This document shows, piece by piece, positions 1-39,341 of a stretch of DNA of 64,000 bases. The notes beneath the pieces were generated by a model. That model was not told the origin of the DNA and did not search any database. It saw only the letters and a program-made list of their open reading frames with translations. The number at the start of each line of letters is the position of its first letter. The first letter of the stretch is position 1. The translations under genes and the position numbers were made by a program. Source of the stretch: Cyanidioschyzon merolae (Eukaryota); the NCBI GenBank assembly GCA_000091205.1, contig AP006497.2; one strand, 5' to 3'.

Positions 1-1646
1 GCATTTTGCGCTGCCGTTGCTGCTGCGAGATGACGACGACGACGACGATCCTTCGCTGTTTCCGCACGTCGACGGTGTGGTCGGCTGCGCTCGCGATCTC
101 CCAGGGCCCGCAGCTCGTCCGTATGGGCTGCAGCGTGCGTGCCTGCTTCGATATCTCGGCCCGCGTTCGTTGATTTGCCGTTCATGTGGGCGTCTTGCAT
201 GGAGCGAGTGCGTTCAGCCTCTTTAGTGGCGCTCTTGGGATCACTTTCAGAATGTGCATTCCTGGTGCCGACTGGAACGGCGAGGTCGTCTTCGATCTCA
301 TCATCATCATCATCATCGGCATGGTGGCGCCTAGAAACGCTCTGTTCCGATTCAGAAGAAGCCTCGACGGAGCTTGCAGGACGCACACCGGCTTGTTCGT
401 CTTCTGAACATTGACCCTCGCAGAGCGAGCCGTCCCCGTCAGGCAGCTTTTTTTGTCTCTCGCTGGATGCACGTTGTCGCATCGTCTCGTTGGGGTGCGC
501 GTCTCCATTCACCACGTCGTAGACGTGATCCTCGTCTCCTGTTGCTTCCACCTGACCCATAATCCGGAATACCTGCACTTCTTCGCCTTTGGCAAGACAA
601 AGATCCTTGCGAAAGCGTCGTACGCAATCCCGATGCTTCTTGCTATGCTCATGATTTTCCCACTGGGCAAACGTTTTGAAATACTTCTTACACGCAAGGC
701 ATTGAACACCTTCGATCGTTGGTTGAACCGCATCACTTGCTCCGTGAGGCTGGTTCACATCAGGTGCCTCCTCGCTGATGCCAGCGTACTCCAAATGCTC
801 CAGTAGCTCCTCAAGATTCGGTATATCCTCTTCAAGCTGCGCAGCAAGCCTCGCCGCATGCAGAGACCGAAGGCGTTCCCACTGTTCTCTTTCCTGGACT
901 TGTCGTTCTAGCTTCTCAGCTTCTTTTCGTGCTTCTTCTTCCTTGTGTTTCAATACTCGACGATCCCGCTTTTTCACAAAGGCAACGAGCTCTCGCACGA
1001 GCGCTTGGAACTCTCTGCGAGCACGCTCCCGCTCGCGGCGGTTGTCGCGTTCTATGGCCCGTCGAATCTCCCGGTTCGGCGCCTCGCTCGGGTTCCAGGA
1101 GTCCGCAAACGCGAACGTCTTCGCTGATACAAAGTTCTCCCAGAAGTTATAGAAGCGACGTACACTGGGCCAGTCCGCTGTGGCACTGCCGAACGGGGGC
1201 GGCTGTGCGCCTCCGGCTGCCACCTCTTCTCTCGCAAGCTGCTCGAACGCTGCTCCGTATACGTGATAGAAACCTCGTTCTCCGTCTTCGTAGCCATTAT
1301 AAGCAGAAGATCGGAAATATTCATATATATTGAGTTCTGTCGCCCGGTTCACCGTACGCTCTGTACGAGAAGCGGCACCGGTGTCCGTCCCAGGCGCTTG
1401 AGTCGCCTCCAGCGGATCCCGGCCGCGCAGGATATCCTCTCGGTGGTCATCATACCATTTTCGTTCATGTGGGTCTGAAAGCACTTCGTAGGCTCTCCGA
1501 AGCTCCTTGAAAGCCTCCGCTGCCTCTTCTGGTCGGTCGGGATTCTTGTCAGGGTGCAGGCGAAGCGCTGCTCTGCGAAACGCTCGCGTGATCTCCTCCG
1601 CGGTGGCGTCCCGTGGAACACCAAGAACTTCGTAGTGACAGCGCAT
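1..1646 (-). CDS. J-domain co-chaperone of the DNAJC21/Jjj1 type; partial, 3' end runs off the window
   Basis: My own reverse-strand translation starts at the ATG (complement of 1644-1646). It reads MRCHYEVLGVPRDATAEEITRAFRRAALRLHPDKNPDRPEEAAEAFKELRRAYEVLSDPHERKWYD, a J domain with HPD. Further on come FYNFWENFVSAKTFAFAD and a C2H2 finger, CLACKKYFKTFAQWENHEHSKKH. The frame stays open to base 1, which explains its absence from the ORF track. Confidence 0.85.
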   Translation of the reverse strand, partial: MRCHYEVLGVPRDATAEEITRAFRRAALRLHPDKNPDRPEEAAEAFKELRRAYEVLSDPHERKWYDDHREDILRGRDPLEATQAPGTDTGAASRTERTVNRATELNIYEYFRSSAYNGYEDGERGFYHVYGAAFEQLAREEVAAGGAQPPPFGSATADWPSVRRFYNFWENFVSAKTFAFADSWNPSEAPNREIRRAIERDNRRERERARREFQALVRELVAFVKKRDRRVLKHKEEEARKEAEKLERQVQEREQWERLRSLHAARLAAQLEEDIPNLEELLEHLEYAGISEEAPDVNQPHGASDAVQPTIEGVQCLACKKYFKTFAQWENHEHSKKHRDCVRRFRKDLCLAKGEEVQVFRIMGQVEATGDEDHVYDVVNGDAHPNETMRQRASSERQKKLPDGDGSLCEGQCSEDEQAGVRPASSVEASSESEQSVSRRHHADDDDDDEIEDDLAVPVGTRNAHSESDPKSATKEAERTRSMQDAHMNGKSTNAGRDIEAGTHAAAHTDELRALGDRERSRPHRRRAETAKDRRRRRHLAAATAAQN

Positions 1647-1695
1647 GACAAATGTTTGTGCCGCTTTTGGGGTCTGCCCCTGATCGTTATTAGAA

Positions 1696-2870
1696 CCCCA
1701 CCAGAAGAAACGCATTTTCCCACGGAAGCGGCAGCGAACGCCGTTCAACAGTCGAAAGTCGCCAGCAGTGTACAGTAGTTGCGAATGACCTGCCCTAGAC
1801 GAGACACGTCCGAATGACGTGCAGACGCCTCCCAGTATTTTTGGACCGGCCACCGACTACTGGTTCCATTTTTTTCTCATATAATCTAACCTTGAGATGT
1901 TGCCCTGCAAAAATTTCTCTTGTCATCTCTGGAGGCCTCTTGTCCATCACCGCACGTCTCCTGATATTGATAGTGGCATTAAAGTCTCGATTCACAAACT
2001 CCATGCGTTTCCTGCCATTGGTAGTTGTATTCATTAGTGCGAGTAGTCCGCGAATTTTCGCCTTAGTTTCCATTTGCACTTCCGCCAGCGCTTTGTACTT
2101 TTTTACACCCTCAAGGCTCGGCTGACACTGCTCCATCTTGACCTTCTGGAGCGTACACCACAGCTCGTGGCGTATGTTGGATGTTCGGAACTCATATATC
2201 GGTATTGTGACGAAACATCGTGCGCATTCCTTGTACGCTCATTGCGAGTTGCTGTAAACCGGAAACGAAATTCTCCTCGACAAGCCATAAAAGTGGTGTT
2301 GTGGCTTTCCGCCAGACACGGTGGCTGTTTTTGCCGTGTCCATGGTCCCGCAGGCGTGTCCCGGAGTGCGCTGACTCCATAAAAGCCGCGAGTTCGCGCT
2401 GCTGCCCTGGCATCGGGGTGCTGGCGGCTCCACAGCACAGATACCTCATGATGTGCGGGCGAAGCATGCTGCTTCAGCACCGTAAGAACGATGCGCTCTC
2501 ATGCGCGTTCCCCTATGATCCGAGATGTAATCCACAGAGTGATGCTGGCGGCTATGACCGAGCGTCTTGCATATAGAATGCAAATCTGGGAACTGCGGCC
2601 TAAGGCTCGGAGTTCCAAGTCACGAATGGTCCATATGCTCACGATCGGTACTCGAAGCGAGCGCGCTGGACATTATACACTGCTTTGCTGCACGAGAACA
2701 GTGCTATGCTCGGGGCCGGCTAGAGTACCTTACGAAAAGTCAGCAGGAACGTCGCTTTCAGGTACGGTGCGTGACACGGGCTAGGCGAGAGCGATCCGTT
2801 TGCGAATCATTTCGGAATGCGAATTCGATGTTCATGAGTGTCTTCCCGTAGTAATGCCTCTTTACTTCAG
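1696..2870 (-). pseudogene. TnpB/Fanzor-like nuclease relic, copy A (5'-truncated, C-terminal half best preserved)
   Basis: ORF 1795-2136(-) reads ...GRKRMEFVNRDFNATINIRRRAV... (RuvC-III DxNAAxNI; Asp codon 1984-1986). My translation upstream in the same frame gives AYKECARCFVTIPIYEFRTSNIRHELWCTLQKVKMEQCQ, preceded by an in-frame TGA and a +1 shift relative to copy B. Weaker nucleotide similarity to copy B continues to about 2600, including a degraded GxDxG region. The 3' non-coding tail at 1696-1794 matches the tails of copies B, C and D. Confidence 0.7.
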
Positions 2871-2901
2871 GTTCGAGGCGCGCCTGTTCGAGTTGGTTTA
2901 G

Positions 2902-3675
2902 CGCTTGCGTTCGAGCTTTTTGTCGATTCCATCGGGAAGCAGACCTGCTTTTTATTCTTCCTTGCACTCCGTGATTCAAGCCCATCACAGACGTGTTTTC
3001 TATCGTGAAACGTAATGATCGCTGCACTGGGCGAATCGCTGAAGCGTTCTGCACAATCACGTCGGAGCATATATCGTCGTTTTTCAGCAAGTCTTTCTCC
3101 CTCCGGGCAGGTCGTCGACTACGGGCATTCAGAAGTACGTGCATTTGTCGAAATAGAAAATCCATGCGAAAAGTATGGACATGAAAGTTAGGGATCCCGG
3201 AGGGTCGTCATTGCCAGGCGCCGGAAAAATGGATATATTGCTCTCCTCGTCGACCAGTGAGCGAAGAAGAGCAAGCGAAGATGATGACGAAGAAGAAGAG
3301 AATAGATAGGCGAGAAAAGATGGATGCCCGACGAGACGCTGGCGATTCTTTATTAGCACTGACGGCGCGAGTTCTAGCAATCCTGGCAATCGTGCGTTCA
3401 ACCGTCGACGATGCTCGCATGTAGCTCGTGAACCGAGACTTCACTGTCACCATCAATATCAGACGATGCGCGGTGCAGGAAACGATACCCGAGGAGCTAT
3501 GACGATCCAACTTCGTAGGGCATGCGCTCAGGCTCGACGCGTGCCTGGATACACTGAAGCTGCCAGCAGGTGGCTGGTCAGAAAAAATGGGAGGCTTCTG
3601 CACGCGGGCACCAGTTTAACCTCCATGGGCGCGAAATGCCTATCGTTTTACTGACTACAGACGTTCATTCTCGAG
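2902..3675 (+). mobile_element. Internally deleted (MITE-like) derivative of the Fanzor-like element; 5' module joined directly to the 3' end
   Basis: 2902-3190 aligns with 16058-16329, the 'U' 5' module of copy C. 3190-3400 aligns with the first ~170 bp of the nuclease gene (gggatccNgaggg..., cgacgagacgctggcga). At ~3425 the sequence jumps to the C-terminal end, gtgaaccgagacttcactgtcaccatcaatatcagacgatgcgcg (VNRDFTVTINIRRCA). This is followed by the conserved tail blocks cagcaggtggctggtc and gggaggcttctgcacg. Confidence 0.6.
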
Positions 3676-4541
3676 CTCGCTCGTACGGCCACCAGCAACT
3701 AGTATACTGTGTTAAGAAGCATGCACAGTGAAATTCCGCAAAAGCTGAGCAGTCACCTGCATGCTGTTCTGATCTGGTAGGCTCGTACGCCATTTGGAAC
3801 GTTGGAGTCGTTTGCTTGTGCCTCCTTCGCGAACGAGCGATGCGGCGTCCGGAACCTTGGCCAAAACGCGTTCCAATACATTATTTCGAAAAGCTGGGCG
3901 TGAGACGCGAGTCAGGACGAAACGGCAATGCGCGCTCAAAGTATGGAAGACTCGATAGAGTCGACCTATCGAAAACAGCTGAGAACCCGAGGATACCAGT
4001 CGAACTTCAACGGTCTTGGACGAAGTTCACAGCCTCAGCACTTGAAATGCCATCCAAATCGCATCAAAACTTGAATATTGTTATTCGGGAGCAAATCGCG
4101 TCTCCGCGCTGGCCTGCCAGGGTTACGCCTCCGATGCCGTTCAGGTAGCCTTCATTGGAACTGGTTGTCTCCCAATGAGCCGTCTCGCTCGGCGGACCGC
4201 TCCCGCAGGCAATGTGCGTTTCCATTCAAAGTCAATCACATGCATCAAGCGTTCCAGGCGCTGCTCATTCGCCTGCACGGGACACTCGCAGGGCAACACG
4301 CTCTGCAGGCACAAGACACTAGTACGATATGCGCGTCCTTCGCAGATCAGCTCCATAGATTGTGGAACCCAAACGACGCTCCACATTCACCCAAGGACGA
4401 GAGAGCGCCCGCCCCGCAGAGCGATGGGATCCGCACGCGGCTCCGGTGCGCAGCCGCTGCCACGCGTCGTTATCGGGAGGCCTCTTCCGACTGACGGCAT
4501 CAGGTCATCACACGCTCATACAATGCTCAATCTCCAACCGG

Positions 4542-6167
4542 CTACGGGGAAAAGCTCTGGAAGAAGGAAATCGAAAAACCCTCGTCAAACCGGTCGCCAT
4601 CGCCACGTCGCAGAATACGTGCCCAGTTGACTTCAAACCGACCGAGGCTCGTACAGCAGGCGAGTCCAAGACCCGCTGACATGCGCCAACTCTGGCGCCA
4701 CGCGACAGCGTCCGACCATTCCCGACAGTCACCTATTGCACAGAACGTGTGGAACTGTAAGCCGAGGGAGCGTGCCACTGCACTGGTAACGATCGGGACG
4801 CCTAGATGTAAACCTAGTTTGTAGTAGACATCTCCACCGATGCTGTCTCCATCGGCGCTGGGCCCTAGGCCCCGATTCCGGAAGCCTCGGAATGCATTCG
4901 CACTGCCGCCGACGAAAAATCGATCGCAGATCCTCGTCTGACGCAACGCATGCCGGGGGCCGGCACGGTGCTCGCTTTTCCGGTCTTTCATCGCAGCGAG
5001 CGCTTGGTGGAAGGGAATGATCATTCCCCCCTGGAAGCCAACTGAGAACACGATAGGAGGCATCAGACGCTCGGGTGGTGACGGGGCAGCGTCACCAGCT
5101 GCAAGTGAATCGTCCACATTGCGCACGAGTTCGCTGCCGTCGGCTCCCGTCAGTGGCACATTCCACTGCCACGAGAGCTCGCTTCGAATAAATCTCGTTG
5201 CGGGATCGCCACCGAGTCCCGCTAGTTCACAGTTCCACTGAGCATTCGTACCCTGACGAGGCGCCAGCGGATCGTCGCGACCATCCCGGGTCCAGGTGTA
5301 TTTGAATGAGCTCTTCACTGAGTGCCCAGCTTGTTCACGAACCCTGATGCTTGCGTGCGGTGCGACTTGCCCCAGCTCGCGCCAGCTGCACTCATAAGCG
5401 AAACGTCCGAACCGCGTCTGGAGGCCGGCTTCAAAGCTGCGCTGAAACTCACTATACGAACTTGTGTCCATGCGATTCAGCAGGGCGCTCTCGGCACTTG
5501 CCGTCGCCAATGCGTCCAGTAACCCCCAGGGATGTGGTTTTCGCCAACCGCAAACAAGATGATTCGTGGCTGTTTGTTTTGCAAATAGGTAGCGGTTCGG
5601 GTGCACCAGTGCAGCGAGGCTACTCAAACTCGAGAGCGCGAATCCGGACCCGCCGACGCCCGCACCAAGTTGGCAATGCAAAGCATCTCCCGTCCCAGTA
5701 AAGTTTATGAAGCCTCCATCAAGCTCGAGAGCGGTCTCGCCGGTGCGCGTATCGGTAGAGGTCCCAATACGGAGTGAAAAAGGTGGCGCCTCACGCACAG
5801 TAACGAGTGCATCGCAGGGCACAGACTCTGCAGTTGGCTCACCGTTCGCAGGGACCGCCGATTCATCGATGAGAATGTCCACTGCACGGAAACACTCGGT
5901 CAGACGGAGTCGCTCGGTTGCGAGTGACGCTCGTTCGAGGAGCTCCTCGAGTGTCAACGAGCGGCGGCTAGACTCAGGAGGCAACGAGTCTCGGTTCTGC
6001 TCCTCCGACAAAGATGCATCTAGGAGGCTCTGGACAAAGTCGATGCGAGTTCGTTCGACGCCGCGAATAATGACCCGCCGCAGACGAACTGTTTCACGCA
6101 AGATGTCGCGAACTGGTGCTTCAAGATTTTGCGCTGAGGCAGTAGCTTGCTCAGATCCGGAAACCAT
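4542..6167 (-). CDS. SAM50/Omp85-family (bacterial surface antigen D15) outer-membrane beta-barrel assembly protein
   Basis: ORF 4542-6224(-), start moved to the first ATG (complement of 6165-6167). There is a POTRA-like N-terminus, VRLRRVIIRGVERTRIDFV. The barrel motifs are VREQAGHSVKSSFKYTWTRDGRDDPLAPRQG, ELAGLGGDPATRFIRSE, FFVGGSANAFRGFRNRGLGP and GGDVYYKLGLHL. Confidence 0.8.
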   Translation of the reverse strand: MVSGSEQATASAQNLEAPVRDILRETVRLRRVIIRGVERTRIDFVQSLLDASLSEEQNRDSLPPESSRRSLTLEELLERASLATERLRLTECFRAVDILIDESAVPANGEPTAESVPCDALVTVREAPPFSLRIGTSTDTRTGETALELDGGFINFTGTGDALHCQLGAGVGGSGFALSSLSSLAALVHPNRYLFAKQTATNHLVCGWRKPHPWGLLDALATASAESALLNRMDTSSYSEFQRSFEAGLQTRFGRFAYECSWRELGQVAPHASIRVREQAGHSVKSSFKYTWTRDGRDDPLAPRQGTNAQWNCELAGLGGDPATRFIRSELSWQWNVPLTGADGSELVRNVDDSLAAGDAAPSPPERLMPPIVFSVGFQGGMIIPFHQALAAMKDRKSEHRAGPRHALRQTRICDRFFVGGSANAFRGFRNRGLGPSADGDSIGGDVYYKLGLHLGVPIVTSAVARSLGLQFHTFCAIGDCREWSDAVAWRQSWRMSAGLGLACCTSLGRFEVNWARILRRGDGDRFDEGFSISFFQSFSP

Positions 6168-6918
6168 CCGCGGGTGCGTACCAGTGCAGCGCTCCTTGAA
6201 GAAAGCTGCCGATTTCTCCACCACACACTGGAGACGTAGACCTCAGACAGTCGAGGTCGATCGCAGCTGCCGAGCCTTTGCAAAACCTGTCCACGGTGTA
6301 AGCAGACACGTCGTCCCCAAAAGTCTGCACCAGCGCAACGCCACATTGGTTCGGGCGAGCGCTTCCGCTGCCGAGGGCGATCCTGCGGGCCTGCCTGCAC
6401 AGCCGCTCGATGAGTGCATTGTCGCCCGTTCGGCGTTCTGGATCGACTGCGTTGAATGGGACTGCATCTGGCAGTGACGTCGGAGGTGTTATGGTGTCAT
6501 CTGGGTGTGCAACGATGCTCAAATGCGTTGCATGGGACTGCATCTGGCAATAACGATCGACCGCGTTGACAGGGACTGCATTTCGCACTAAAGTCGGAGG
6601 TGTCATCGTATCATCTGGGCCTCAAGTCGTTCGTGCAGTGTTGATGCCGGGTCGAAGAAAGGGACCGATTGCCCGTGCGCTTTTGTCCATGCGCACAGTC
6701 CCTGGAAGGCGGAGTGCGTTGATGATGGAGGTCCTTTTTGGATGCGTCCCCCAGATATCCCGCTGTTCAGACTCAAAAGGGTGACAGTCCTATTGAAAAG
6801 GTTCTCGTGCATCATGCCGCTCGCTAGTTTCGTCCCGGACAGCAAGGATAACCCCTAAAAGAGCTACAGACCACGGCGACGAGCTCGATGAACAAGAGTC
6901 TGCTCGTTCGGCGGCTGA

Positions 6919-6922
<4 letters not shown>

Positions 6923-6957
<35 letters not shown>

Positions 6958-6958
6958 C
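6923..6958. repeat. (GCA)12 microsatellite
   Basis: Twelve uninterrupted GCA units read directly, about 130 bp upstream of the eL41 ATG. Confidence 0.95.
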
Positions 6959-7085
6959 GTTGCGCTGTCACGATCGAATTCGTGACATCACCGCCGCGCT
7001 TCACGGACGGCACACATCGCGCACCATCTACGAGCACATCTGTTTTCGCGCTGTACGCTCTTGAAGAGCAAAAACCAGGTGGCAT

Positions 7086-7163
7086 ATGAGGGCCAAGTGG
7101 AAGAAGAAGCGTATGCGCCGCTTAAAGCGAAAGCGACGAAGGATGAGACAACGTAGTAAGTAA
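7086..7163 (+). CDS. RPL41: 60S ribosomal protein eL41 (25 aa)
   Basis: atgagggccaagtggaagaagaagcgtatgcgccgcttaaagcgaaagcgacgaaggatgagacaacgtagtaagtaa translates to MRAKWKKKRMRRLKRKRRRMRQRSK*. This is the near-invariant eL41 sequence. It is too short to appear in the ORF track. Confidence 0.85.
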   Translation: MRAKWKKKRMRRLKRKRRRMRQRSK

Positions 7164-7554
7164 GGCTGCTCTTTTCGTCTCCATAAATGTTGGCAGCTTG
7201 GCTCGCAACGTGCACGACAGGCACTCGGGGCGCCAGTTCATGAACGAGCTCGCGGCTGTGTTGCCGGTTTACGTGTTGGGGCGACTCTTTTTAGCTGAGA
7301 GTCGTCGTTGTCGTTGTCATAAATTGCGACACAAAGTATTTGCCGCCTCTTCTTCTCTAGACGGGTGAGTTGAAGCTACGAACTCGGAGGGCACAACTTT
7401 GACCTCGGAAACGAACCAGTTGGAACGGTAACCACTTTTAGCGGTATTATAAACAGGACGGACAGCCTTTTCCCCCGATCACTTGCAAGATGAGACTCTC
7501 CAGAAAACGAGGCGTTCGCCGGTCTCTACGAACACTGGCCGCGTGCCCGCTGCG

Positions 7555-8547
7555 TTAGTGCGTTTGCTGGATCTCCCGTTGAATCTCAGCAAGCGCCAGG
7601 CGCACGTCCCGCTCTGTTACCACCCTGTTTTCTCGTGCACACTCTTGGAAGAGGCTGTACAACCGCCTTTTGGCGGCGCCCCAGGCATATGCGTACTCCA
7701 GCTCCAGCACCCGCTTGCCCTGAATCGAAGGCGGAAACGGAGACATTTCCACGTCGACGGCACCATCCGCAGCCTGTTCCTCATCAAAAAGCCATTCCAG
7801 ATGCGCAGCGTTTCGTTGTGAGCTGCAGGCGTCACATGGACAGACTACCGCCTCCAGTTCCTCCACAGTCACAAATATCGGAGCCATTTGCTCCGACTGC
7901 GTCGACGTGTCGCTGTCAAGTACCGCTTGCGCAATGCAAAGCGGTTTCGACACGCTGCCCGCTGCCTTGGCAGCGGGCACCCATAGCGCCAAGGGGCTGC
8001 AGCTCCGCCGGCACGCAGTGCACACAAGCAGCCCGTCCGTGGAGCCCGTCGTCGCGTCCAGGCCACCGAGGCACTTGACGTGGAACCAGTCCTCACAACC
8101 AATACACTGGTGCATGGTGTCGTCTTTCTCGCCTTGATACTCGGCGTCACATACACAGAACCTGTTTCGAGCGTTGTGATGCTCTCGCAGCCACCACACC
8201 TGAGAGGTCGGCAACGGCGCAGCGGCAACGTCGCTTAGCGCACAGTGCGGAGGCGCACACTGGCATACGAGTCCGTGCTTGTTTCCCAGCGCAAACGTGT
8301 CGTGGTCTGCGTGGCAGGCATCCGCACACGCCTGGCATACGATGGACGGTAAACTGGGGCCCTCGGGCAGCGCTGCCCGCGTCGTGCACGTCCGACAGAC
8401 ACACACTGCTATTGCACGTTCTGCTTGAGAGCGCTCGCGAGCACACTGCCAGTTGTGCTCTGGACACGCAGCACTGACTAGGTCCTCCAAGGTCACCACA
8501 TCCTCTGAGTCTTCGACTGAACCGAGAGCGTGCTCACTAGACCCCAT
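7555..8547 (-). CDS. UBR-box plus PHD-type zinc-finger protein (UBR7-like)
   Basis: ORF 7555-8574(-) starts on TTG; the first ATG gives MGSSEHALG at 8547. A Cys/His-rich UBR-like block reads CVCRTCTTRAA...CQACADACHADHDTFALGNKHGLVCQC. A PHD-like block reads FCVCDAEYQGEKDDTMHQCIGCEDWFHVKCLG. Confidence 0.6.
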   Translation of the reverse strand: MGSSEHALGSVEDSEDVVTLEDLVSAACPEHNWQCARERSQAERAIAVCVCRTCTTRAALPEGPSLPSIVCQACADACHADHDTFALGNKHGLVCQCAPPHCALSDVAAAPLPTSQVWWLREHHNARNRFCVCDAEYQGEKDDTMHQCIGCEDWFHVKCLGGLDATTGSTDGLLVCTACRRSCSPLALWVPAAKAAGSVSKPLCIAQAVLDSDTSTQSEQMAPIFVTVEELEAVVCPCDACSSQRNAAHLEWLFDEEQAADGAVDVEMSPFPPSIQGKRVLELEYAYAWGAAKRRLYSLFQECARENRVVTERDVRLALAEIQREIQQTH

Positions 8548-8575
8548 GCTTCGGGCGCCGTGGCAAAAGTGCAAA

Positions 8576-10919
8576 CCCCTGGAAACAAACGTCTTTCAAA
8601 AGAAAAACGATGCAGCCTGCGGTATACAGAAATGGCGCGCAGCGCGCCCGAGTCAGAACGTCTCCAGCTGACGTGCAGTCGCCTCCCCGTCTTTTTGGAC
8701 CGGCAACCTACTACTGATTCCAACTTTTTTTCATATAATTCCACTTTGGGAGGTTTTCCAACAACGTTCTCTCTTGTCAACTCTGGAGGTCTTTTCTCGA
8801 GCACCGCACATCTCCTTATATTGATGGCGGCGTTAAAGTCTCGGTTCGCAAACTCCATACGTTTCTTGCCATCATTGGTTGTACTTACTGATGCAAGCAA
8901 TCCTCGAACTTTCGCTCTCCTTTCCATTTGCTCTTCCGTCAGCGCTCCGTACTTTTTCGTATCCTCAGGGCTCCGCTAGCACTTTTCCATCTCCACCCTC
9001 TGAAGTGTACACCCCAGTTCATGGTGTGTATACGATGTTCGAAACTCATCCATTGGTATCGTAACGAAACGCCTCGCGCACTCCTTGTACGTTCTTGTCG
9101 TTGGAGCTGGAGTAGTCCCTTTTTGGGTCTTCCAGCGCCCTGCTCCGTACCCTGCTACGAGCCTCTGACTTTTATCCTCCTTCAGGGCACTCAACTGATT
9201 GAAAAAACTCTCGAACGCACGCTGCTTACCACACTATAGATTCATTCGCAAACGAGCCCACCGGGGCTTGGTATACTCCTCCCACAATGCATTCCAATGA
9301 GCAACGCGAACTTCCATGAATTTCCGAAAAGCTTTAAAGTCCGCTCCTCGGCTCGTCACCTCGCTCACAGCTTCCAGGTGCTCGTTCATTCCTGCATTCC
9401 ATTTCTCGATTTTCTTCCTCGTATTCATGATTCCCGATTCTCGATGGTATCTCGCTCTCGAGAACCTCAAAAGACGCATATCTTTCTGATGCAAGGTACC
9501 GTCAGTACCATCTTCCCCACGCTTCGGTGCTGCGATGGTTATGATACTTGTGTTTCCAGCGTCCGCGCCAACGACAAAGTCGTTCTCGTGCATCTTCTGT
9601 GTCGCAGGACCCGCCTTCTTCTCATCTTCATGGTTCTCCGAGGGCGGAACGGGCCGATCCACACTCAACCGCCGATAGTGTATGCACCTGGCTACTCCAT
9701 CGGTTTCGATCATCCCAGTGAATACCTTTTGTCTGCTTACTTTCAGACGTTTGAAATCGAAGATACTCTTCCGGGGCATCTCCCGGTTTTCGTCGGTGAA
9801 CTCCTCCCTGCGAACATCGAACTCCGGACAGATCTCCTTCAAGATGCCATGAAGGATTCTCGAGTCCATAGTCACAAAATGTGACTTGATATTGCAAATT
9901 GGAACCATGTTGAAGCGCTTCCCCATTAGGGCCGACTTCCGCCTCTCCCACTCTTTATTTGTCTCCTCACTCAGCTTCCTCTCTGCCTGGCGTTCGAGTT
10001 CTCGGTCCAGAACCACAGAATAGCGCAGGACGAGGCGATAGTATCTTTCCTTAACTTTTTTTCAACTCTGATATCTTTTCTGTTGGATTCGCCAGCTCCA
10101 AGACTGCACGGTGCTCTTGTATTACGGCACGGATGACGGAGTCCTCATTCATGCTCTGGTTTGACGCCTTCTTGTCGACGAATTCGATCTCATCTTCATG
10201 CTTACGATCGTTCGTGGTGCCATTGAGGTCCGCCTATACTCCATTGCGAGAGATGCGCGGGTAGCGTGCAAACACGGCACGTATCATGAAACGTTCGAGG
10301 TTCATTGTCAAATGGTTCTTCAGATTCGTGAGGTATTTCATGGCCCCATAGTCCTAAATATCCCGGTCACCCCTATACCGAGTACCCTCGAAGCGGAATT
10401 CCGGGAAGGTTTCGTGGAGGACATGCACTGCTCATTTTCCCTCCGCGCTTTCGCTGTACCAAGCATCAGGTGACGAATAAACGTCGTGTCGAAGAATTCT
10501 TCCGGAATCTCGACTGTTTCCATGTGCGTCACGTCGCGATACATCTCCTTCACCAAATGCATCAGTCCTATAGAGTCCATACGAACCCTCGTGAAGTACG
10601 AATCAACATAATTTCTGATGGCCTCTCGCAGATTTTGCTTGTGCGGATCCTGAATATGGCCTAGATGGCATGATTTCTTTACAATCTTGAAGTAGGGTCG
10701 TCTTTCGAGTTGCATTTGGCGCCGGGCCCCCCCTTGTTTTGCGTCATCGTCGTGTCTTGTTTCTCTTCGGTCGGTATTCTTTTTCGCTTTTTCCGCTAGC
10801 CGGCGACGCTGCCCCTCCAGGATCCTCCACTTCCTTTTCCATAACTTTCCTCTTTTATTTTTTTGTAACGCACTTTGAACGCTTCTGCTATAAACCGCGA
10901 AAAAAACACGAGAATACAC
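8576..10919 (-). pseudogene. TnpB/Fanzor-like nuclease relic, copy B (full length, disrupted)
   Basis: Four collinear ORF pieces are present.
- 10338-10919: basic N-terminus KRGKLWKRKWR.
- 9234-10016: ...[18 protein letters not shown], RuvC-I GxDxG.
- 8976-9194: ...RRFVTIPMDEFRTSYTHHE.
- 8493-8927: ...KKRMEFANRDFNAAINIRRC, with the RuvC-III Asp codon at 8838-8840.
An in-frame TAG at 8976-8978 is CAG (Gln) in copies A, C and D. Further stops and shifts lie between 10016 and 10340. The tail ends ...cgtttgtttccagggg at 8576. Confidence 0.75.
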
Positions 10920-11650
10920 TTGTTTGAGGTTTGAGACACAAATGAACGGAAAAACTGTACTTTGCTACAACTTTAACGCAAGTACAACTTTTATATTAGA
11001 GCAGCACGCTATTGATCAGGATCGCGTTTCCCTTCAGCTGCGGGATGCGCGTCGTGACTCGAAAACTAACAGATCTCCCTGGTGCGCAAATCGATAGCGC
11101 TATGTAGAACAAAGAACAGAGACTCACGACTAGCGAGCAACGATACAGCAATTTCTCTCCCGTTCTACGATAAACGTTGAAAACGGGGAAAAGGTTCCCA
11201 TATTCTGAAGAGTCCTCCCTCTAGGCGAAAAGTCCCGCGAGCCGGACGAGTCTCCCGGACTCGTGCTTCGTGCTCCACCCAGTAGCGGGCGCTGTGGCGA
11301 GACCTGAGCAGTTCGTCCGCAACGCGGTTCATTCTGGGACTAGATGCGGGATGCTGTGTTTGGTCGTCGCCCTGATCGCAGTAGACTCCTAATATATCGG
11401 TTCGCGCTTTCGCAGGCAGTAGTTCTGTCTGTTTAGCCTACAGGCTCCCAGAATTATTCTGGACTCCAACGCTGTATCAGGTAAAGCGTTCCTCAATCCG
11501 TCGCCCTCAGTGGTATGGCAACGCTGTTCTATCTCCATGATGCATCCGTCCCAGTGGTATAGGCGCTAAGGCGGGTGCCCAAAGCAGGCACTCGGTCGCA
11601 CTACAGAACGCACAAAACGATCTGTACATCCGAAAGGAAGTATAAGGAAC
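10920..11650 (-). repeat. 'V' upstream module attached to copy B (homologous to 36290-37062 of copy D)
   Basis: The reverse complement of 10920-11650 aligns by eye with 36290-37062. Matching pairs include tttttcgcggtttaYAScagaagcgttcaaa, gagccggacgagtNtc, gacctgagcagNtcgtccgca, and caggcactcgg...gtaYatccga. Confidence 0.6.
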
Positions 11651-11897
11651 GGAGCATGGAGGTAGAGTGCATCATGATGGACACTTTTTCGATCAGCTAT
11701 ACCCATCCATCTCGCTATCTGGAATCCAAGTACAATGTAAACGTTTTGTCATTGGAGAGAAATCAGCGGCAACAGCAAATGCAGCGGATTTTGTTCCATG
11801 TGAAAACTTCTCACACAGGCGAGCGTGCCGCGACTCTGTGTGCTTGCTACCTGCGCGCGGTGAAACTTTCGTCGTTCCACGCTTTACGTCCGAGTTT

Positions 11898-12185
11898 CAT
11901 AACCCATACTTCTTCTCGGATGTACTGGCGTTTCAGACGTACTATCGGGCGCCGAGTGCCTGCCCGTGAACATCCGCCTCAATAGCGCTTGTAGCGCCGG
12001 TGCTGTCGTAGCACAGAAACAGAACGGCGTTGCCGTACCGCAGACGGCGTCTGCTCGAGGCATGCTTCACCTGACGTAGAACTGGGTCTCGTTGTCAGGT
12101 TGTGCTCGGACAGCCTGCGGATGCAAAACTTGCTTTCGCTGCACAACACATTGGAGAAACTTGGCTGTTACGATGAATCCTGGGA
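11898..12185 (+). repeat. Second, inverted partial copy of the V module (homologous to 22052-22338)
   Basis: 11915-12170 aligns with 22069-22323 at a constant offset of ~10154. Shared strings include ctcggatNtNctgg, gaacggcgttgccgta, gacgtagaaNNgggtctcg and ctggagaaacttggctgtta. Its first ~165 bp form an inverted repeat with 11479-11641. Confidence 0.6.
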
Positions 12186-12701
12186 GCCGCCTCTCTCCTG
12201 CGTGATCGTACATGGAAAGCGTCGCCCTCGGTTGGCGACTCGGGTCTGTGCTTGGCACCCACCAGTGAGTAGGTACGCGTAACACTGGTCCCGTGTGCGC
12301 ATCTGGTTTGCTGGACCTTCCACCTAGAAGGTAGAGTATGAGTTCGCTGACCACTGGTGAGTGCTGGAGCTCAGTTACGGGACCATCAGTTGCTAGCACT
12401 ACACTCAAAGTAAGTGGCTGGCCTTCATTTACCACAGTGATTCCCAGATGTTAATGTCTCTCAAAGAGATAGCTGCGTTCTTTTTTTCCAGCACAGGCAC
12501 AGAAAGCTTAAGTGTGCTGGCGTCTCTGGCATCCCGATTCCGCTGCACCGAACGCCGCGATCCTTCGAAGCCCTGCATCGCGAGCACGCTGCCGCCCATC
12601 GTCGATGATCACGAAACGATTTTTCCGTTCGTGTTGCATGAACGTTTGCGTTCTTACTTGATTGCAACTCGCAGTTTCATTGTTGTGTATAACGCTGGAT
12701 A

Positions 12702-14983: not shown

Positions 14984-15403
14984 TCAAACTGAAATGGTAT
15001 TTGCCGCAAGCTTCCCATGAAGAGGCATTTGCTGGTCGCATTTGGACTTTGGAAGCGATGCTGAAGACAAGTTCATCGCCGCGAACTCGCGTTGGAGCGG
15101 GATGCTTTGGCATTTCGCGACTGCAAAGCAACGTTCAGTGAGTGCTGGTGAGTGCCAGCACGCACATGCCAGCACCATGCCCTGAACAGACCCAGAAAAC
15201 GAATCGACGCGAATGTTTAGCTGCTTTTTCACCAGATGTGTCATATTGGCATCTATCGGATGCGTGAACGCTACCATCAAAGAGGCCCGAGGTTTCCGTT
15301 CTTGTAGTCTTTGTACTAAATTCTGTTTCACTTCCGCTGCGATGTCTAGAAGGAGATCGAAATCACAATGCAATGCATAGTGTAGATCGTAGATGATTTG
15401 CAT
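14984..15403 (-). CDS. Hypothetical protein (139 aa), no recognisable domain
   Basis: ATG-initiated ORF in an otherwise unassigned interval. I recognise no motif. Confidence 0.2.
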   Translation of the reverse strand: MQIIYDLHYALHCDFDLLLDIAAEVKQNLVQRLQERKPRASLMVAFTHPIDANMTHLVKKQLNIRVDSFSGSVQGMVLACACWHSPALTERCFAVAKCQSIPLQREFAAMNLSSASLPKSKCDQQMPLHGKLAANTISV

Positions 15404-16057
15404 GTAGCATATACATTCATTTCTGAACAGTGCAAGGAAGACTGTATTCCTCGTTTAGGACAGTCATACCACCGTACTCAGATGGTTGGCAAACACTGTA
15501 AGAAAAATGTAGATGCACTCCGTGCCAGAGATCGATATTCATTGAGGTCGCTTGCAGTCGATCTTAGAAAACGATCCGTTGATCACCATTTTCGGAAAGC
15601 AACAGCGACGATAATAGCCGCCACAGGCGTCACCGTTTCTCAACAGCTTATTCTTATGATCCCGAAAACATTGGGATACAATCTCAAAAAAAGTCATCGT
15701 TCAAGCAAAGGCATCTTCCATCCAAATCGCAACGACAGAGTCCCTGGAACGTCACGATCGATAGGAACCACTGGATCGTCAGTTTGTTTGTTCAGTTGAT
15801 GAAAATTGCTTCAGAAGGCACGCTCGGAGCGTCAATGGGTATTCGAGGTGAAGGGCGCCCGTTGTACGTTCGATCGAGCTCGAAGAGAACGACGAAATCA
15901 TCATCTATTATAGCTTTAGAAGATTTATTTGGCGGCCTCAGTTTCACTTGTAGAAAAGACACATGCAACAGCACCAACCAATTTGTCCAAGCATTGAAGA
16001 CTTTTACCCGACGTCTGGCGACGTCCTTCTATTGGGCAACGTGGCATATCACCATAT

Positions 16058-18612
16058 CGCTTGCGTTCGAGCTTTTTGCCGATTCTATCGGGGTAGGGGT
16101 GATTTTTGTTCGTCTGTGCGCTCCGTGGTTCAAGCGCATTGTAGGAGTGTTTTCTATCGTGAAACGTGATGATCGCTCCCCCGGGCGAAACGCTGAGCGT
16201 TCATCACTCGGTAACACATCGGGGTACATGCCATTTATCTTGCGAAAGCCACGCTCCCTCCGAGAAAGCCCTCATCTAAGGGCAAAAAACGTGCGGTCGT
16301 TTTGACGAAATAAAACTCCAAAACAAAGCTATGCACGTGCAAGTCGGGGATCCTGAAGGGCCCTTGCCGCCGGCTGGCAGAAAAAAACGAAAAATTCTGC
16401 CAATGGAATAGGAACAAAACAGAACGAAGAAGCAAAAGGGCGAGGCCCGACGTCAAAAGCTGCGCGAAAGACGACTATGCGACGAGACGCTGGCGAAAGC
16501 CTGTCTTGGTAACCATATCAAGGATTCGGACAAGCAAACATGCAACAAGTCATCCGAGACCGTGTCGAGTCGCACTCCATGAGTATTGTAAAGGATTCTT
16601 CAGGACTAATGCCTTTGACGAAGGAGATGAATCGCGGCGTGACGGGCATCAAAACAGTCGAGGTTCCGGGAGAATTTTTCAACACCATCGTTATGCATCA
16701 CCTGATGCTTGGCACAGGGGAAACGTCGAGGAGAAAGGAGCGAATGCATGCCCTCCACAAAATTACCCCGAATACCCTTTTCATCGGTAATCGATACCGG
16801 CGTGACTCGGATATTTACACGTACGGGGCGAAAAAGTACCTCACGAACCTAAAGAACCATATGAACATGAACCTCACACGTTTCATGATACGTTCCGTCT
16901 TCGCGCTGGACCCGTGCCTCTTTCGCAAAGCGATAGACGGGTTACCATCAATGGCATCTCGAACGATAGTAAGAACGAACAGGAGATCGAACTCGTCGAC
17001 AAGAAGACCTCGCACAGGAGCATGAATGAGGCTTCTGTCATCCGCGCGGCTATTCAAGAGCACCGTGCACTCTTGGGGCTCGTTGACCCAGCAGAACAGG
17101 TATCAGAGATGAAAAAGATGGAAAAAGAAAGATGTTACCCACACTTCCTGCGCTATTTCGTGTATTTGGACCAAGAACTCGAACGCAAGGCTGGGATGGA
17201 GCAGGGTGTGCGGAAAAATGCAGAGTCGGTAGAACGGAAGGCTGCGCTTGCGGGTACGCGCTTCGAAGTCGTTCGGTTATGCGAGATCAAGTCGCACTTT
17301 GTGACAATCGACTCCAGAGTCCTTTACGGAATACTGAAGGAGATAAGTTCGGGGCTCGATGTACGCAACAAGGAGTTCACCGGTGAAAATCGGGACACGT
17401 ACTGGACGCATGTCTTCGACGTCAAGCGTCTCAATACGAGCCAGAAAAGGTATTCAGAGGTGTCATCGAAACTAAATGAGTAGCCATGTGTGCACACGAT
17501 CGGCGCTTGAAGGCAGATCGTCATATCGTGCCTTCGGCTTCGCCCGTGACGAAGCATGAAGATGTGAAGCAGGCGGATCCCGCGACGCAGGAGGTTCAGG
17601 ATACTGGCTTTGGCGGCGGCGCGGACCCTGGGATGACGAATATCATAACGATCGCAGCACCGAAGCGTGCGGGAGATGGTGCTGATGGTAACCTGCGTCA
17701 GATAGAAATGCGTCTCTTGAGGTTCTCGAGACCGAGATACTACCGAGAATCCGGTTCAATGAATGCGAGGAAGAAAATCGAGACATGGAATGCAGGAGTC
17801 AAGGATCAGCTGGAAGCTATGAGCGAGGTGACGATCCGACATGCGGACTTTCAAGATCTGCCAGAGTTCATGGACACTCAAGCTGCTCATGTCGAGGAGC
17901 TGCGGAAAGAGTATCGAAAACAAAGGTGCGCTCGTCAGCGTTTGAATCTGTACAGAGAGAACCAGCGTGCATACGCCAACGATTTCAATCCGTTGAGCGC
18001 CTTGAAGGAGGACGAGAGTCAGAGGCTGGTAGAAGCGTATGGGGCAGCGCGCTAGCTGGCCCGAAAAGGGACTACGCCAGCTCCAACGACAAGAACACTC
18101 AAAGAGCGTACACGGCGTTTTGTTACGATACCAATAGGTGAGTTCCGAACATCGTATACACACCATGAAGTGAGGTGCGTACTTCAGAGGGTCGAGATGG
18201 AAACGTGCCAGCGGAGCCAAGAGGATATAAAAAAGTACAGACCGCTGACGGAGGAGCAAATGGGAAGGAGGGCAAAAGTTCGCGGACTCCTTGCATTCGT
18301 GAGTACAACCAATGATGGCAAGAAACGCATGGAGTTTGTGAACCGAGACTTTAACGCCGCAATCAACATCAGAAGATGTGCGCAGCTGGAGAAAAGACCT
18401 CCAGAGTTGACACGAGAGAGAATTTTGTCAGACGACCTCTCAAGGTCGAAGTATACGAGAAAAAGTTGAAACCAGTAGCAGGTGGCCGGTCGAGAAAGTC
18501 GGGAAGGCGTCTGTACGTCGGCGTATAGGCATCCGATCTGCGGCGCGCCGCTCGCCACTCCTGTACCCCTAGCGACAGCGTTTTTCTTGTGAAAGGCGTT
18601 TGTTTCCAGGGG
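16058..18612 (+). mobile_element. Fanzor/TnpB-like element copy C ('U' 5' module + disrupted nuclease gene + conserved 3' tail)
   Basis: The U module 16058-16329 matches 2902-3190. The gene pieces are 16540-17025, 16914-17483, 17486-18055 (...GGGADPGMTNIITIAAP; Asp codon 17624-17626) and 18170-18469 (...MEFVNRDFNAAINIRRCA; Asp codon 18347-18349).
Lesions:
- frame changes near 16535 and 16925;
- TGG to TAG at 18053-18055, where copy B keeps Trp;
- a +2 bp 'ga' insertion near 18417, which breaks the C-terminal ...TRENFVRRPLKVEVYEKKLKPVAGGRS.
The tail ends ...gaaaggcgtttgtttccagggg at 18612. Confidence 0.75.
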
Positions 18613-21683: not shown

Positions 21684-22051
21684 CGCTGCGCGCCTCCGCG
21701 CGTAACCGCTATGTTTTTCGTGGAATACGACGTCTGCGATGAACCTGAATATCTCGAGTACGTGATTGTTGTCGGCAACGAGAAAACAGGCGACAATTCC
21801 TTTTCAGATGGTTTGATGCTTCACGCCTGCCAGCACAGTCTCTCGATTCGAACATAGGATTCGACTCAACGACTTTTGGGCTACAGTGCTCACTCGACGG
21901 TAAGCTCGCCACGACATCCGATTCTTTTCATGGACAAAACGTTTCCATCGGCCAGCGTTCTCCGATTACGCGCATTTTTCTTTTCTTACTTTTTTTGTGT
22001 TTTTTTTTCAGTGCGCGGTGAGGTATCCACCAAATCCCCTACTTCCATGTT

Positions 22052-22338
22052 ACATTACCTGCACTTCGTCTCGGATATTCTGGTCGTTTCATACGTCCTA
22101 TCGTGTGTGCCTAGTACCTGCCGAAAGCGACAGCAATAGCGCCTACAGCGCCAGTGCGGTCGCTGCACGGAGACAGAGCGGCGTTGCCGTAACACAAAGG
22201 GCGGCGGCTCGAGGCGTGGCTCACCCGACGTAGAATCGGGTCTCGTCGTCAGTTTGTGCTCGGAGAGTCTGCGGATGCAGGCTTGTCTTCGCAGCACGAC
22301 ACGCTGGAGAAACTTGGCTGTTAGGATATATCCTGGGA
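22052..22338 (+). repeat. Solo fragment of the V module (matches 11898-12185)
   Basis: See the 11898-12185 feature. The core ctcggatattctggtcgtttcatacgtcctatcgtgtgtgcctagtacctg also matches 36294-36342 in copy D. Weaker similarity may extend left to ~21930. Confidence 0.6.
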
Positions 22339-35429: not shown

Positions 35430-37062
35430 ACCATGATTCCAGTTCACATGCACAAGCTTCTATGCTCCTCCGTTCCTTGCATATAGCATGCTTGGATCAT
35501 GCATTGTTTACGTTTTTGATCTCTCCGTTTCAACGCAACTCGCGCCGCTGAATCGACGACGAAAAGAGCTCGACGAAACCCCGTGAAGACCGCGTCACAA
35601 GATCGTACCACAAATTCACTAAACTTTTCATTCCAAATAATAAGTTCAATTCAAAAGATAAATCCTCCTCTAATTGCGGTCATCAACGAAGCTGCATTCG
35701 ACAACAGCGGCGGCATGATGCCTGTCACAGGAGGTGCTCCCCGAGGCTTCCGCTTTCTCTGTGAGGAAAATGGTAATGGACCCGGCCATGGGTCATCACA
35801 GGGATCGCTACTGATAGAGCGCGCGTCGACATATAAAGCGCGAAGCGAGCGTAGACGGATCGAAAGTTTTGGAGTTGATCTCCAGCCTGGGTTGCCGTCT
35901 TGGTGCCTGATTCATCATGGACGGTAACATCGCGTCCCAAACAGCCTCGATCTTGGAAAGCAGCGTGCGCTTGCACGACCAGCGGACAGGGTACTCACCG
36001 AGGATCTCGCGCAGAGGAAACCCGTAATCGTCGGGTACAGCACAACGCGCTGCATCAAAGGGAGGCATCTTGCAGCGCCCTGCGTACCGGTCAAGCGGTT
36101 GTACTGAGCGGTGAAGCGAGCGCTGACGAGCGATAAGCGGCGGTTCCTCAGCAGCAGCAGCAGCGATACTGACTTTTTCGATGACAAAACGTTTACATGG
36201 GCTATGGATCTCAGATTGCGGGATGGATATCGGTAATTGAACATGCGCCCATCATGAAGCATCTACATGAAAGATCCATCACCTGTACTTGCTCTCGGAT
36301 ATACTGGTCGTTTCGTGCGTTCTAGCGTGTGCCGAGTGCCTGTTTGGAGCACCCGCCATGCGCTTAGACCGGTGGGGCTGATGCATCACAGCGGCAAAAC
36401 AGCTTTGCCCTGCCAGCGAGGGCGTCGACTCGAGGTGTGATTCACTATTCACAGGATCGGAATTGGTGATCATTTTGGGAGCCTGCAAGCTGCGCAGACA
36501 GACGTACTTTATGCAGCGGCGCCAAGCGATATTCGAGAAGTCCACGACGACCAGGGCGACGCCTAGACGCAGGCTATGCGCTCCTAGTCCCAGAATAAAC
36601 TGCGATGCGGACGAGCTGCTCAGGTCTCACGAAACCACCTGCAACTGGGGCGAGCACGAAGCGCGAGCCCGAGACACTCGTCCGGCTCTCAGGACCTTCC
36701 GCCTAGAGGATAAACTTTAGACAGTACGGAAACCTCTCCCGCTTTTAACTTTATATCGTTGCTAGTTAGGAGTGAGCCTCCGTTCTTTGTTCCGTATTGC
36801 GCGCTCGACACGCCCACCTCCATACTTGGCTGGCTGGCATGAAACACGACGTGCATCTCGCCGATGAAGAGAAACGCGATCGCGATCATTCGTTGACTTG
36901 GTGCTCTAACAGACAAGTTGCGTTTGCGCAAAAGTCCTAGAAAAGTATAGTTTTCATTTCAATCGCGTTTCAACCCTCAGTTTAGTGTACGCAGGTGATT
37001 TTTCGCGGTTTACACCAGAAGCGTTCAAAATGGGTTCATGTTCAAGAAAATATAGGAAAGTG
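35430..37062 (+). repeat. 'V' upstream module attached to copy D (longest version in the window)
   Basis: 35430-36340 aligns with 63110-64000 in the same orientation and with 59950-60670 in the opposite orientation. 36290-37062 aligns with the reverse complement of 10920-11650. It contains an ORF-like block on the minus strand (35808-36068) that is conserved in the other copies. Confidence 0.6.
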
Positions 37063-39341
37063 ATGCACGTGCAAGTCGGGGATCCTGAAGGGCCCTTGCC
37101 GCCGGCTGGCGGAAAAAAACGAAAAACTTTGCCAATGGAATAGGAACAAAACAGAACGAAGAAGCAAAAGGGCGAGGCCCGACGTCAAAAGCTGCGCGAA
37201 AGACGACTATGCGACGAGACGCTGGCGAAAGCCTGTCTTGGTAACCATATCAAGGATTCGGACGAGCAAACATGCAACAAGTCATCCGAGACCGTGTCGA
37301 GTCGTACTCCATGAGTATTGTAAAGGATTCTTCAGGACTAATGCACTTGACGAAGGAGATGAATCGCGGCGTGACGGGCATCAAAACAGTCGAGGTTCCG
37401 GGAGAATTTTTCAACATCATCGTTATGCATCACCTGATGCTCGGCACAGGGGAAACGTCGAGGAGAAAGGAGCGAATGCATGCCCTCCACAAAATTACCC
37501 CGAATACCCTTTTCATCGGTACTCGATACCGGCGTGACTCGGATATTTACACGTACGGGGCGAAAAAGTACCTCACGAACCTAAAGAACCATATGAACAT
37601 GAACCTCACACGTTTCATGATACGTTCCGTCTTTGCGCTGGACCCGTGCCTCTTTCGCAAAGCGATAGACGGGTCACCATCAATGGCATCTCGAACGATA
37701 GTAAGAACGAACAGGAGATCGAACTCGTCGACAAGAAGACCTCGCACAGGAGCATGAATGAGGCTTCTGTCATCCGCGCGGCTATTCAAGAGCACCGTGC
37801 ACTCTTGGGGCTCGTTGACCCAGCAGAACAGGTATCAGAGGTGGAAAAAGATGGAAAAAGAAAGATGTTACCCACACGTCCTGCGCTATTTCGTGTATTT
37901 GGACCAAGAACTCGAACGCAAGGCTGGGATGGAGCAGGGTGTGGGGAAAAATGCAGAGTCGGTAGAACGGAAGGCTGCGCTTGCGGGTACGCGCTTCGAA
38001 GTCGTTCGGTTATGCGAGATCAAGTCGCACTTTGTGACAATCGACTCCAGAGTCCTTTACGGAATACTGAAGGAGATAAGTTCGGGGCTCGATGTACGCA
38101 ACAAGGAGTTCACCGGTGAAAATCGGGACACGTACTGGACGCATGTCTTCGACGGCAAGCGTCTCAATACGAGCCAGAAAAGGTATTCAGAGGTGTCATC
38201 GAAACTGAATGAGTAGCCATGTGTGTACACGATCGGCGCTTGAAGGCAGATCGTCATATCGTGCCTTCGGCTTCGCCCGTGACGAAGCATGAAGATGAGA
38301 AGCAGGCGGATCCCGCGACGCAGGAGGTTCAGGATACTGGCTTTGGCGGCGGCGCGGACCCTGCGATAACGAAGATCATAACGATCGCAGCACCGAAGCG
38401 TGCGGGAGATGGTGCTGATGGTAACCTGCGTCAGATAGACATGCGTCTCTTGAGGTTCTCGAGACCGAGATACTACCGAGAATCCGGTACAATGAATGCG
38501 AGGAAGAAAATCGAGACATGGAATGCAGGAGTCAAGGATCAGCTGGAAGCTATGAGCAAGGTGACGATCCGACATGCGGACTTTCAAGATCTGCCAGAGT
38601 TCATGGACACTCAAGCTGCTCATGTCGAGGAGCTGCGGAAAGAGTATCGAAAACAAAGGTGCGCTCGTCAGCGTTTGAATCTGTACAGAGAGAACCAGCG
38701 TGCATACGCCAACGATTTCAATCCGTTGAGCGCCTTGAAGGAGGACGAGCGTCAGAGGCTGGTAGAAGCGTATGGGGCAGGGCGCTAGCTGGCCCGAAAA
38801 GGGACTACGCCAGCTCCAACGACAAGAACACTCAAAGAGTGTACACGGCGTTTTGTTACGATACCAATAGGTGAGTTCCGAACATCGTATACACACCATG
38901 AAGTGAGGTGCGTACTTCAGAGGGTCGAGATGGAAACGTGCCAGCGGAGCCAAGAGGATATAAAAAAGTACAGACCGCTGACGGAGGAGCAAATGGGAAG
39001 GAGGGCAAAAGTTCGCGGACTCCTTGCATTCGTGAGTACAACCAGTGATGGCAAGAAACGCATGGAGTTTGTGAACCGAGACTTTAACGCCGCAATCAAC
39101 ATCAGAAGATGTGCGCAGCTGGAGAAAAGACCTCCAGAGTTGACACGAGAGAGAATTTTGTCAGACGACCTCTCAAGGTCGAAGTATACAAGAAAAAGTT
39201 GAAACCAGTAGCAGGTGGCCGGTCCGAAGAAAACTGGGACGCGTCTGCACCTCAGTTCGGGACGTCTTGTCAAGGGCGCTGTCGTCGCCACGTCTGTATA
39301 CTGGCGGCGGCGACGTTTGTTTTTCGAGAAGCGTTCGCTGG
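37063..39341 (+). pseudogene. TnpB/Fanzor-like nuclease relic, copy D (near-identical core to copy C)
   Basis: The pieces are 37272-37757, 37646-38119/37758-38216, 38219-38788 (GGGADPAITKIITIAAP) and 38903-39202 (MEFVNRDFNAAINIRRCA). It shares with copy C the TAG at 38786-38788 and the +2 bp shift near 39150. It also has an in-frame TAG after MHVQVGDPEGPLPPAGGKKRKTLPME. The 3' tail 39225-39341 is diverged from C and closer to A. Confidence 0.75.

Follow-up and report, generated by a model that had tools for sequence, protein, structure and literature searches.

A 5'-truncated short element in Cyanidioschyzon merolae and the multiplied, Fanzor1-derived family to which it belongs

The short element S, which spans 755 bases (2902-3656) on the plus strand of the analysed window, i.e., a stretch of 64,000 nucleotides from contig AP006497.2 of the red alga Cyanidioschyzon merolae (assembly GCA_000091205.1), is collinear with both ends of copy C, a full-length Fanzor1 element of the same window (Table 1). 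The most plausible explanation, to which a probability of about 0.8 can be given, is that S is an inert, 5'-truncated copy of a non-autonomous Fanzor1-derived family with elements of ~1.4 kb, which would have originated from a single deletion and then spread in ancient times. The initial annotation of this region had extended the element to 3675; its 3' end, however, lies at ~3656.

Table 1. Parts of element S and the related copies in the window
Feature	Position	Strand	Basis or remark
Last ~270 bp of the ~1.0-kb type-1 5' non-coding module (S)	2902..3174	+	matches C 16055-16327
Fanzor1 N-terminus remnant, frameshifted (S)	3175..3345	+	ATG at 3175; CMe-1 residues 1 to ~55
Deletion junction zone (S)	3346..3369	+	collinearity with C breaks here
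Fanzor1 C-terminus remnant, CMe-1 residues 647-723 (S)	3370..3604	+	tblastn 49% over 77 aa, E=2e-14
3' non-coding tail, short-type lineage, terminating in ...CGTTTTACTGAC(TA) (S)	3605..3656	+	seven short copies aligned at their 3' ends; no similarity beyond this point
Copy A, 5'-truncated CMe-1A fragment	1760..2240	-	consensus 2665-3145; CMe-1 residues 589-728
Unique spacer between copy A and S	2241..2901	.	belongs to no copy
Copy B, full-length CMe-1A, frame broken	about 8575..11752	-	85% to consensus
Copy C, full-length, type-1 5' module (15308-16327), pseudogene	about 15308..18598	+	frame and tail CMe-1A-like
Copy D, full-length CMe-1A, frame broken	about 36179..39335	+	82% to consensus

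TnpB and Cas12 have eukaryotic relatives in the Fanzor proteins, which are under development as genome editors. Host-transposon families such as CMe-1A have no known inverted repeats, target duplications or transposase gene that would explain how they move. CMe-1A is one Fanzor1 family of Cyanidioschyzon merolae, described by Bao & Jurka in 2013 (PMC3627910) with a consensus of 3,169 bp, a protein of 734 aa (CMe-1) and ~150 copies, each ~80% identical to the consensus; it has no inverted repeats, and its target duplications were undeterminable. The same paper reports TE-N2_CMe, a non-autonomous element of 635 bp that corresponds to the 5' end of CMe-1A and has ~70 copies.

Copies A-D were recognised by self-comparison of the window, and their family identity follows from direct comparison with the CMe-1A consensus DNA and the CMe-1 protein, both taken from the supplement of PMC3627910. 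The alignment with the consensus extends over its entire 3,169 bp for copies B and D, and for copy C only from position 868 (868-3169). According to tblastn with CMe-1, the identity is 84% for B (residues 261-732), 73% for A (589-728), and 72% for both C and D (371-723/734). Each of the window's four gene copies is a pseudogene. Apart from these copies, two solo fragments of ~200 bp (11885-12075 and 22038-22240) both correspond to consensus ~84-282 with the same boundaries; they may derive from TE-N2_CMe or represent a small repeat unit in its own right. A 98-bp unit in three tandem copies with 99% identity was also seen at 60964-61257.

The assignment of these proteins to Fanzor/TnpB, which is made from sequence, rests on the 84% identity to a published member and on motifs. 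The broken frames of the larger copies carry GADPGNTNIITIA, DEFRTS and NRDFNAAINIRR, and full-length relatives have GADPGNTNIITIA ... DEFRTSY ... NRDFNAAINIRR at distances that fit the Fanzor1 motif, tested in the form D-X(125,275)-[TS][TS]-X-X-zinc finger-X(5,50)-RD, of which S keeps the RD part alone. The full-length relatives have only two Cys and two His where the C4 finger is expected. Pfam and NCBIfam scans of the frame pieces and metagenome homologues reported no family, the only label being the uninformative precomputed DUF8286. When solved structures (PDB) were searched with single sequences and with profiles, the best match was SpuFz1 (8gkh, E=0.12), and it was lost with a second profile; the AlphaFold2 model, computed from an alignment of 20 sequences, has a mean pLDDT of 35 and is unusable.

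Comparison of S with copy C supports the internal loss of ~1.8 kb, with the gene start and the C-terminal part kept, that the initial annotation had proposed. Identity between S 2899-3204 and C 16055-16360 is 71% (E=1e-37), S 3329-3345 equals C 16480-16496 at 17 of 17 positions, S 3370-3480 matches C 18277-18390 (70%, E=1e-9), and S 3565-3604 matches C 18477-18517; the part of C absent from S amounts to ~1.76 kb (roughly 16512-18270). On the N-terminal remnant, tblastn with CMe-1 gives a weak match, with residues 1-18 at 3175-3228 and residues 20-48 at 3248-3334. CMe-1 codons ~55-646 are gone at the junction, and with them RuvC motifs one and two of the nuclease as well as the TS/zinc-finger region. 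The C-terminal motif that had been noted as retained is indeed present, the third RuvC motif NRDFTVTINIRR being kept at 3431-3466, and the remnant around it carries a premature stop and frameshifts. The junction, which had been put at 3400-3425, lies about 50 bp further left. It was placed by multiple alignment and a single-match criterion; when the short copies were aligned globally to the consensus at a low gap-extension cost, the noise was too high for this purpose.

On its sequence, S belongs to a sister family of CMe-1A with a different 5' module and tail. It matches the CMe-1A DNA only at consensus 2840-2971 (70%), and no similarity was found between consensus 1-867 and its 5' module; a comparison of S with consensus 1-635 likewise gave none. 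The 5' region common to S and C has no counterpart in B, D or the CMe-1A consensus. Within this type-1 module, minus-strand open frames reach up to 187 aa in some copies (15308-16327 in the window; L010, L034 and L019 among the metagenome contigs described below), and the conserved 20-mer used for the metagenome scan reads IITFHDRKH on the minus strand. In a search for a gene in the module, three-base periodicity was weak and limited to positions ~540-810, and no Pfam hit was obtained.

Copy C itself has an unusual composition. It is 98% identical to D over 16325-18519 and 37057-39253, which is almost exactly the reading frame from the ATG to near the stop, and the two copies have frameshifts in common; their 5' modules, in contrast, show no relation, their tails agree at only ~70%, and the boundaries are sharp. 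It seems that these two pseudogene copies, which lie 21 kb from each other, recently underwent ectopic gene conversion, and C looks like a chimera in which a D-like copy has supplied the reading frame in place of the original one. A short-type assignment of the C tail was dropped after a wider alignment, according to which this tail is CMe-1A-like or intermediate.

The distribution of the short form was obtained from one metagenome scan with the exact 20-mer TGTTTTCTATCGTGAAACGT, which is conserved between S and C in the 5' module and falls within the module part of S. The scan returned 30 contigs representing nine loci with unrelated flanks; since an exact match was required, these copy numbers are lower bounds, biased to copies that conserve the site. 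Eight of the nine loci occur in a single sample (Ga0080006), each once, and the loci of S and C recur at 98-99% identity across samples. Judging from this co-occurrence and recurrence, the loci probably lie in one genome population, those other than S and C being known from metagenome contigs and not from the window's assembly. Only one of the nine, C, is full-length, and the other eight are short.

The junction count that the initial annotation had suggested as a genome-wide check, made here among the loci of the metagenome scan, detects the S-type junction at S and at four other loci with unrelated flanks (L006/L010, L008/L025, L011/L034, and L012/L019). Alignments of S run unbroken across it at L006/L010 (2909-3537), L008/L025 (2910-3604, E=8e-93), and L011/L034 (2905-3513), and S is also contiguous across it with L012/L019. 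More generally, S aligns to other short copies in single alignments of 620-713 nt with E-values down to 1e-93, a similarity far beyond chance. The same junction at loci with unrelated flanks, aligned without a break, therefore means that the S-type deletion form multiplied. These loci leave hardly any room for the reading in which a full-length copy was inserted here and lost 1.8 kb in place, so that the junction would be unique and nothing would have been mobilised. Deletions did occur at this locus, given that S is old, frameshifted and 5'-truncated, and the heptamer GTTCGAG is found three times within 45 bp at its 5' truncation point; local decay, however, does not account for the same unbroken junction at four further sites.

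A second junction class is common to L005/L007, L020, and L027, in which the 5' module is joined directly to ...YTHHELGCTLQ, and this second deletion form arose independently. Two classes mean that deletion happened at least twice in the lineage, which lends something to the view that several full-length copies lost the same segment independently at a hotspot and that the short form never moved. That view, however, needs identical end points at five loci and is very improbable. The short copies moreover have in common derived changes that the long copies lack, namely a 3-nt deletion, several substitutions, and a tail of their own, with AGACGATG and GCGGAGCTGAC among the diagnostic changes. Further points against it are that a single full-length copy with the type-1 module was found versus eight short ones, and that the tree of the copies is star-like. 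Multiplication of one deleted form thus remains the preferred reading. An intact full-length parent with both the type-1 module and the short-type tail was not found among the loci.

Several other features of the metagenome contigs concern the family and its relatives. In the N-terminal remnant at L012/L019, which is one locus in different samples, a unit of ~93 bp is tandemly expanded, with L019 having two copies and L012 five or more; this array is a polymorphic minisatellite born within a transposon relic. Contig L016 carries a further short-type 3' end at its edge (12110-12469, minus strand), and the copies of the family therefore exceed the nine loci defined by the 20-mer. Contigs L002 (1-1200) and L004 (8300-9130) hold two CMe-1A copies head to head, of which the plus-strand one keeps ~160 bp of its 5' module and adjoins the complete inverted module of the other, a case of recurrent 5' truncation close to the gene start. 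An invertible upstream module was also considered and rejected, because L002 and L004 simply contain two head-to-head copies.

Element S is also incomplete at its 5' side. In C and seven other loci the type-1 5' module reaches ~795 bp upstream of the 20-mer, S alone being the exception; with a module of ~1.0 kb, a complete short element measures ~1.4 kb. The module part of S equals positions ~708-980 of the module in L010, L025, L034, and L007. Thus, S begins mid-module, with ~750 bp including the 5' terminus absent, and this missing part was not found elsewhere within the window. The edge at 2902 is accordingly read as a truncation point and not as an element end, which makes S doubly defective, by internal deletion and by 5' truncation. 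The claim that S keeps the 5' module holds for its last 270 bp only. As for the claim that both element ends carry the cis-requirements, it has to be given up for this copy: S has no 5' terminus and therefore cannot by itself indicate where such requirements lie. Of the three GTTCGAG heptamers at the truncation point (window 2861-2915), two are in the flank and one is in the element, and they may represent microhomology involved in the truncation.

The surroundings do not agree with the proposed head-to-head abutment or nesting of S with copy A, whose edge had been placed at ~2870. Copy A ends at 2240 and is separated from S by 660 bp of unique sequence, which has no match to the copies in the window, the CMe-1A consensus or the non-orthologous loci that were fetched, and is matched only by the same locus in other samples. 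The fragment of copy A and S share one intergenic region, which extends from a DnaJ/zuotin-like gene to an Omp85-family gene. Contig L001 from a JGI metagenome represents the same locus as window 1-11196 with 99.4% identity; it was searched for an empty site, and S is already present there. S is present in all samples that cover its locus and is fixed in the population. The window in general holds long intron-poor eukaryotic genes, and one host protein is 74% identical to its counterpart in Cyanidiococcus yangmingshanensis and ~49% to Galdieria proteins.

According to the divergence of the copies, the spread of the family is not recent. Pairwise identity among the copies is 64-73%. CMe-1A copies have diverged from their consensus to a comparable extent, which points to an old burst at roughly the time of theirs. 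Drift in the short copies is almost neutral: codon-position divergence in the C-terminal remnant is 0.28/0.30/0.37 for short copies versus 0.17/0.13/0.30 for long ones, and in the coding-constraint test the short copies show only a slight excess at third positions. Conservation is flat along the short element (~0.68), with the best conserved part, the stretch coding for NAAINIRRCAV, at 0.76-0.78. In the DNA of this stretch (S 3445-3475; columns 81-111 of alignment A4, all copies), RNAalifold applied to the 3' ends predicts a 10-bp hairpin.

These values bear on the idea that the 3' ~300 bp still make a Fanzor guide RNA, or act as another cis-acting RNA or DNA hairpin, and that a full-length Fanzor1 is borrowed for homing or retention. 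Guide RNAs of TnpB and Fanzor are usually encoded at the last ~300 bp of the element, and both deletion classes retain this part; the raised conservation of the NAAINIRRCAV-coding stretch and the hairpin possible within it point the same way. On the other hand, the predicted pairing shows no covariation (1 of 18 pairs), compensatory changes are absent from the hairpin, Rfam scans returned no match, divergence is uniform overall and near-neutral, every gene copy of the window is a pseudogene, and S is truncated and decayed. A working satellite is thus improbable. Equally doubtful is its wider form, in which the deletion classes would mark the minimal cis parts (the ~1-kb 5' module and the last ~300 bp) and the short elements would be guide-RNA-only satellites using RNA-guided homing through a borrowed Fanzor1. 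If the satellite part were true, the frame-limited 98% tract between C and D would be a trace of repair-based copying; if the part on minimal cis regions were true, this would be a class of transposons with no inverted repeats, target duplications or known transposase.

Regarding the element ends, no terminal inverted repeats were detected in S, in C or between the aligned ends of the family, with the termini known to within ~5 bp. The flanks, which had been named as a place to look for target-site features, contain no target-site duplication at C or at the five complete short copies. The description of S as MITE-like is therefore appropriate in one respect, namely that it is an internal-deletion derivative that multiplied; with neither terminal inverted repeats nor target duplications, and with a complete short form of ~1.4 kb, it does not strictly qualify as a MITE.

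Small hairpins occur near the 3' ends of long copies (AGACG-TTT-CGTCT, e.g., B 8600-8640 and D 39270-39300) as well as of short ones (AAACG-TTTT-CGTTT or AACGG-TTTT-CCGTT, e.g., L005:13090-13150), some substitutions in them appear to preserve pairing, and the terminal T-rich motif, CGTTTT(T)C(G)TTTT, is similar between the two lineages. Copies that are short at the 5' side and keep the 3' end are frequent, including A, S, the plus-strand copies in L002/L004, and fragments in L003. Full-length elements encode Fanzor1 only. As a lead for further work, the 5' truncation with a kept 3' end together with the 3' hairpins would fit best with one-ended copying of the Helitron/HUH type, and recalls the Helitron-like mode described for Fanzor1 elements of Chlamydomonas (PMC3627910).

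Under the preferred reading of S as a truncated member of a family that multiplied, the family would have originated once, by an internal deletion of codons ~55-646 in a 734-codon Fanzor1 gene. The parent would have been a sister of CMe-1A with the other ~1.0-kb 5' module and a diverged 3' tail, residing in a Cyanidioschyzon-like red alga. During an ancient burst, at about the time when the gene-bearing copies spread, the deleted form, which cannot produce the nuclease, would then have reached five or more sites in the genome, and a second, independent deletion form at least three. Mobility was presumably supplied in trans, and the type of machinery, too, can be suggested only indirectly. Finally, insertion itself or some later deletion would have cost S the first ~750 bp of its module, and neutral decay would have followed.

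A gene-less derivative that multiplied implies that the Fanzor gene is dispensable in cis, and it confines the DNA that is needed to the 5' module plus the final ~300 bp. The short elements are thus a concrete substrate for testing both the moving enzyme and the 3' guide RNA.

Among known systems, CMe-1A is the closest: it resembles S in the protein remnants and differs in the 5' module and the 3' tail. Its representatives in the window are B and D as full-length members and A as a 3' fragment, and they agree with the family description in having no inverted repeats and no detectable target duplications. TE-N2_CMe is similar to the S family in that both are short, gene-less Fanzor relatives from the same algal group with no inverted repeats. 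However, TE-N2_CMe consists of the 5' part of CMe-1A only, whereas the S family keeps both gene ends and the 3' tail and has another 5' module.

The Fanzor1 elements CRe-1/2/3 of Chlamydomonas, described as Helitron2-type and non-autonomous (PMC3627910), share with the S family the internal deletions, the frequent 5' truncation with 3' ends in excess, and the lack of inverted repeats. Unlike in the S family, their ends are recognised as those of Helitrons, and many have target duplications after TTTT; neither such ends nor such duplications could be shown here. Ds elements derived from Ac, as well as MITEs, are comparable in having an internally deleted gene, retained end regions, and propagation in trans. 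They differ in their terminal inverted repeats and target-site duplications, which the S family lacks; complete S-family elements are ~1.4 kb long, and the family was detected at eight loci or more, not at thousands. With regard to the definition of a MITE, the S family is non-coding and present at eight or more loci, and C, its sole full-length partner to carry this 5' module, looks chimeric.

Gene-less relatives of CMe-1A and internally deleted Fanzor elements had already been reported in 2013 (PMC3627910), and S itself is an ordinary fossil that adds little beyond that family description. In comparison with it, what is new here is modest and consists of a sister lineage with its own 5' module and tail, two deletion classes, and the multiplication of the S-type class.
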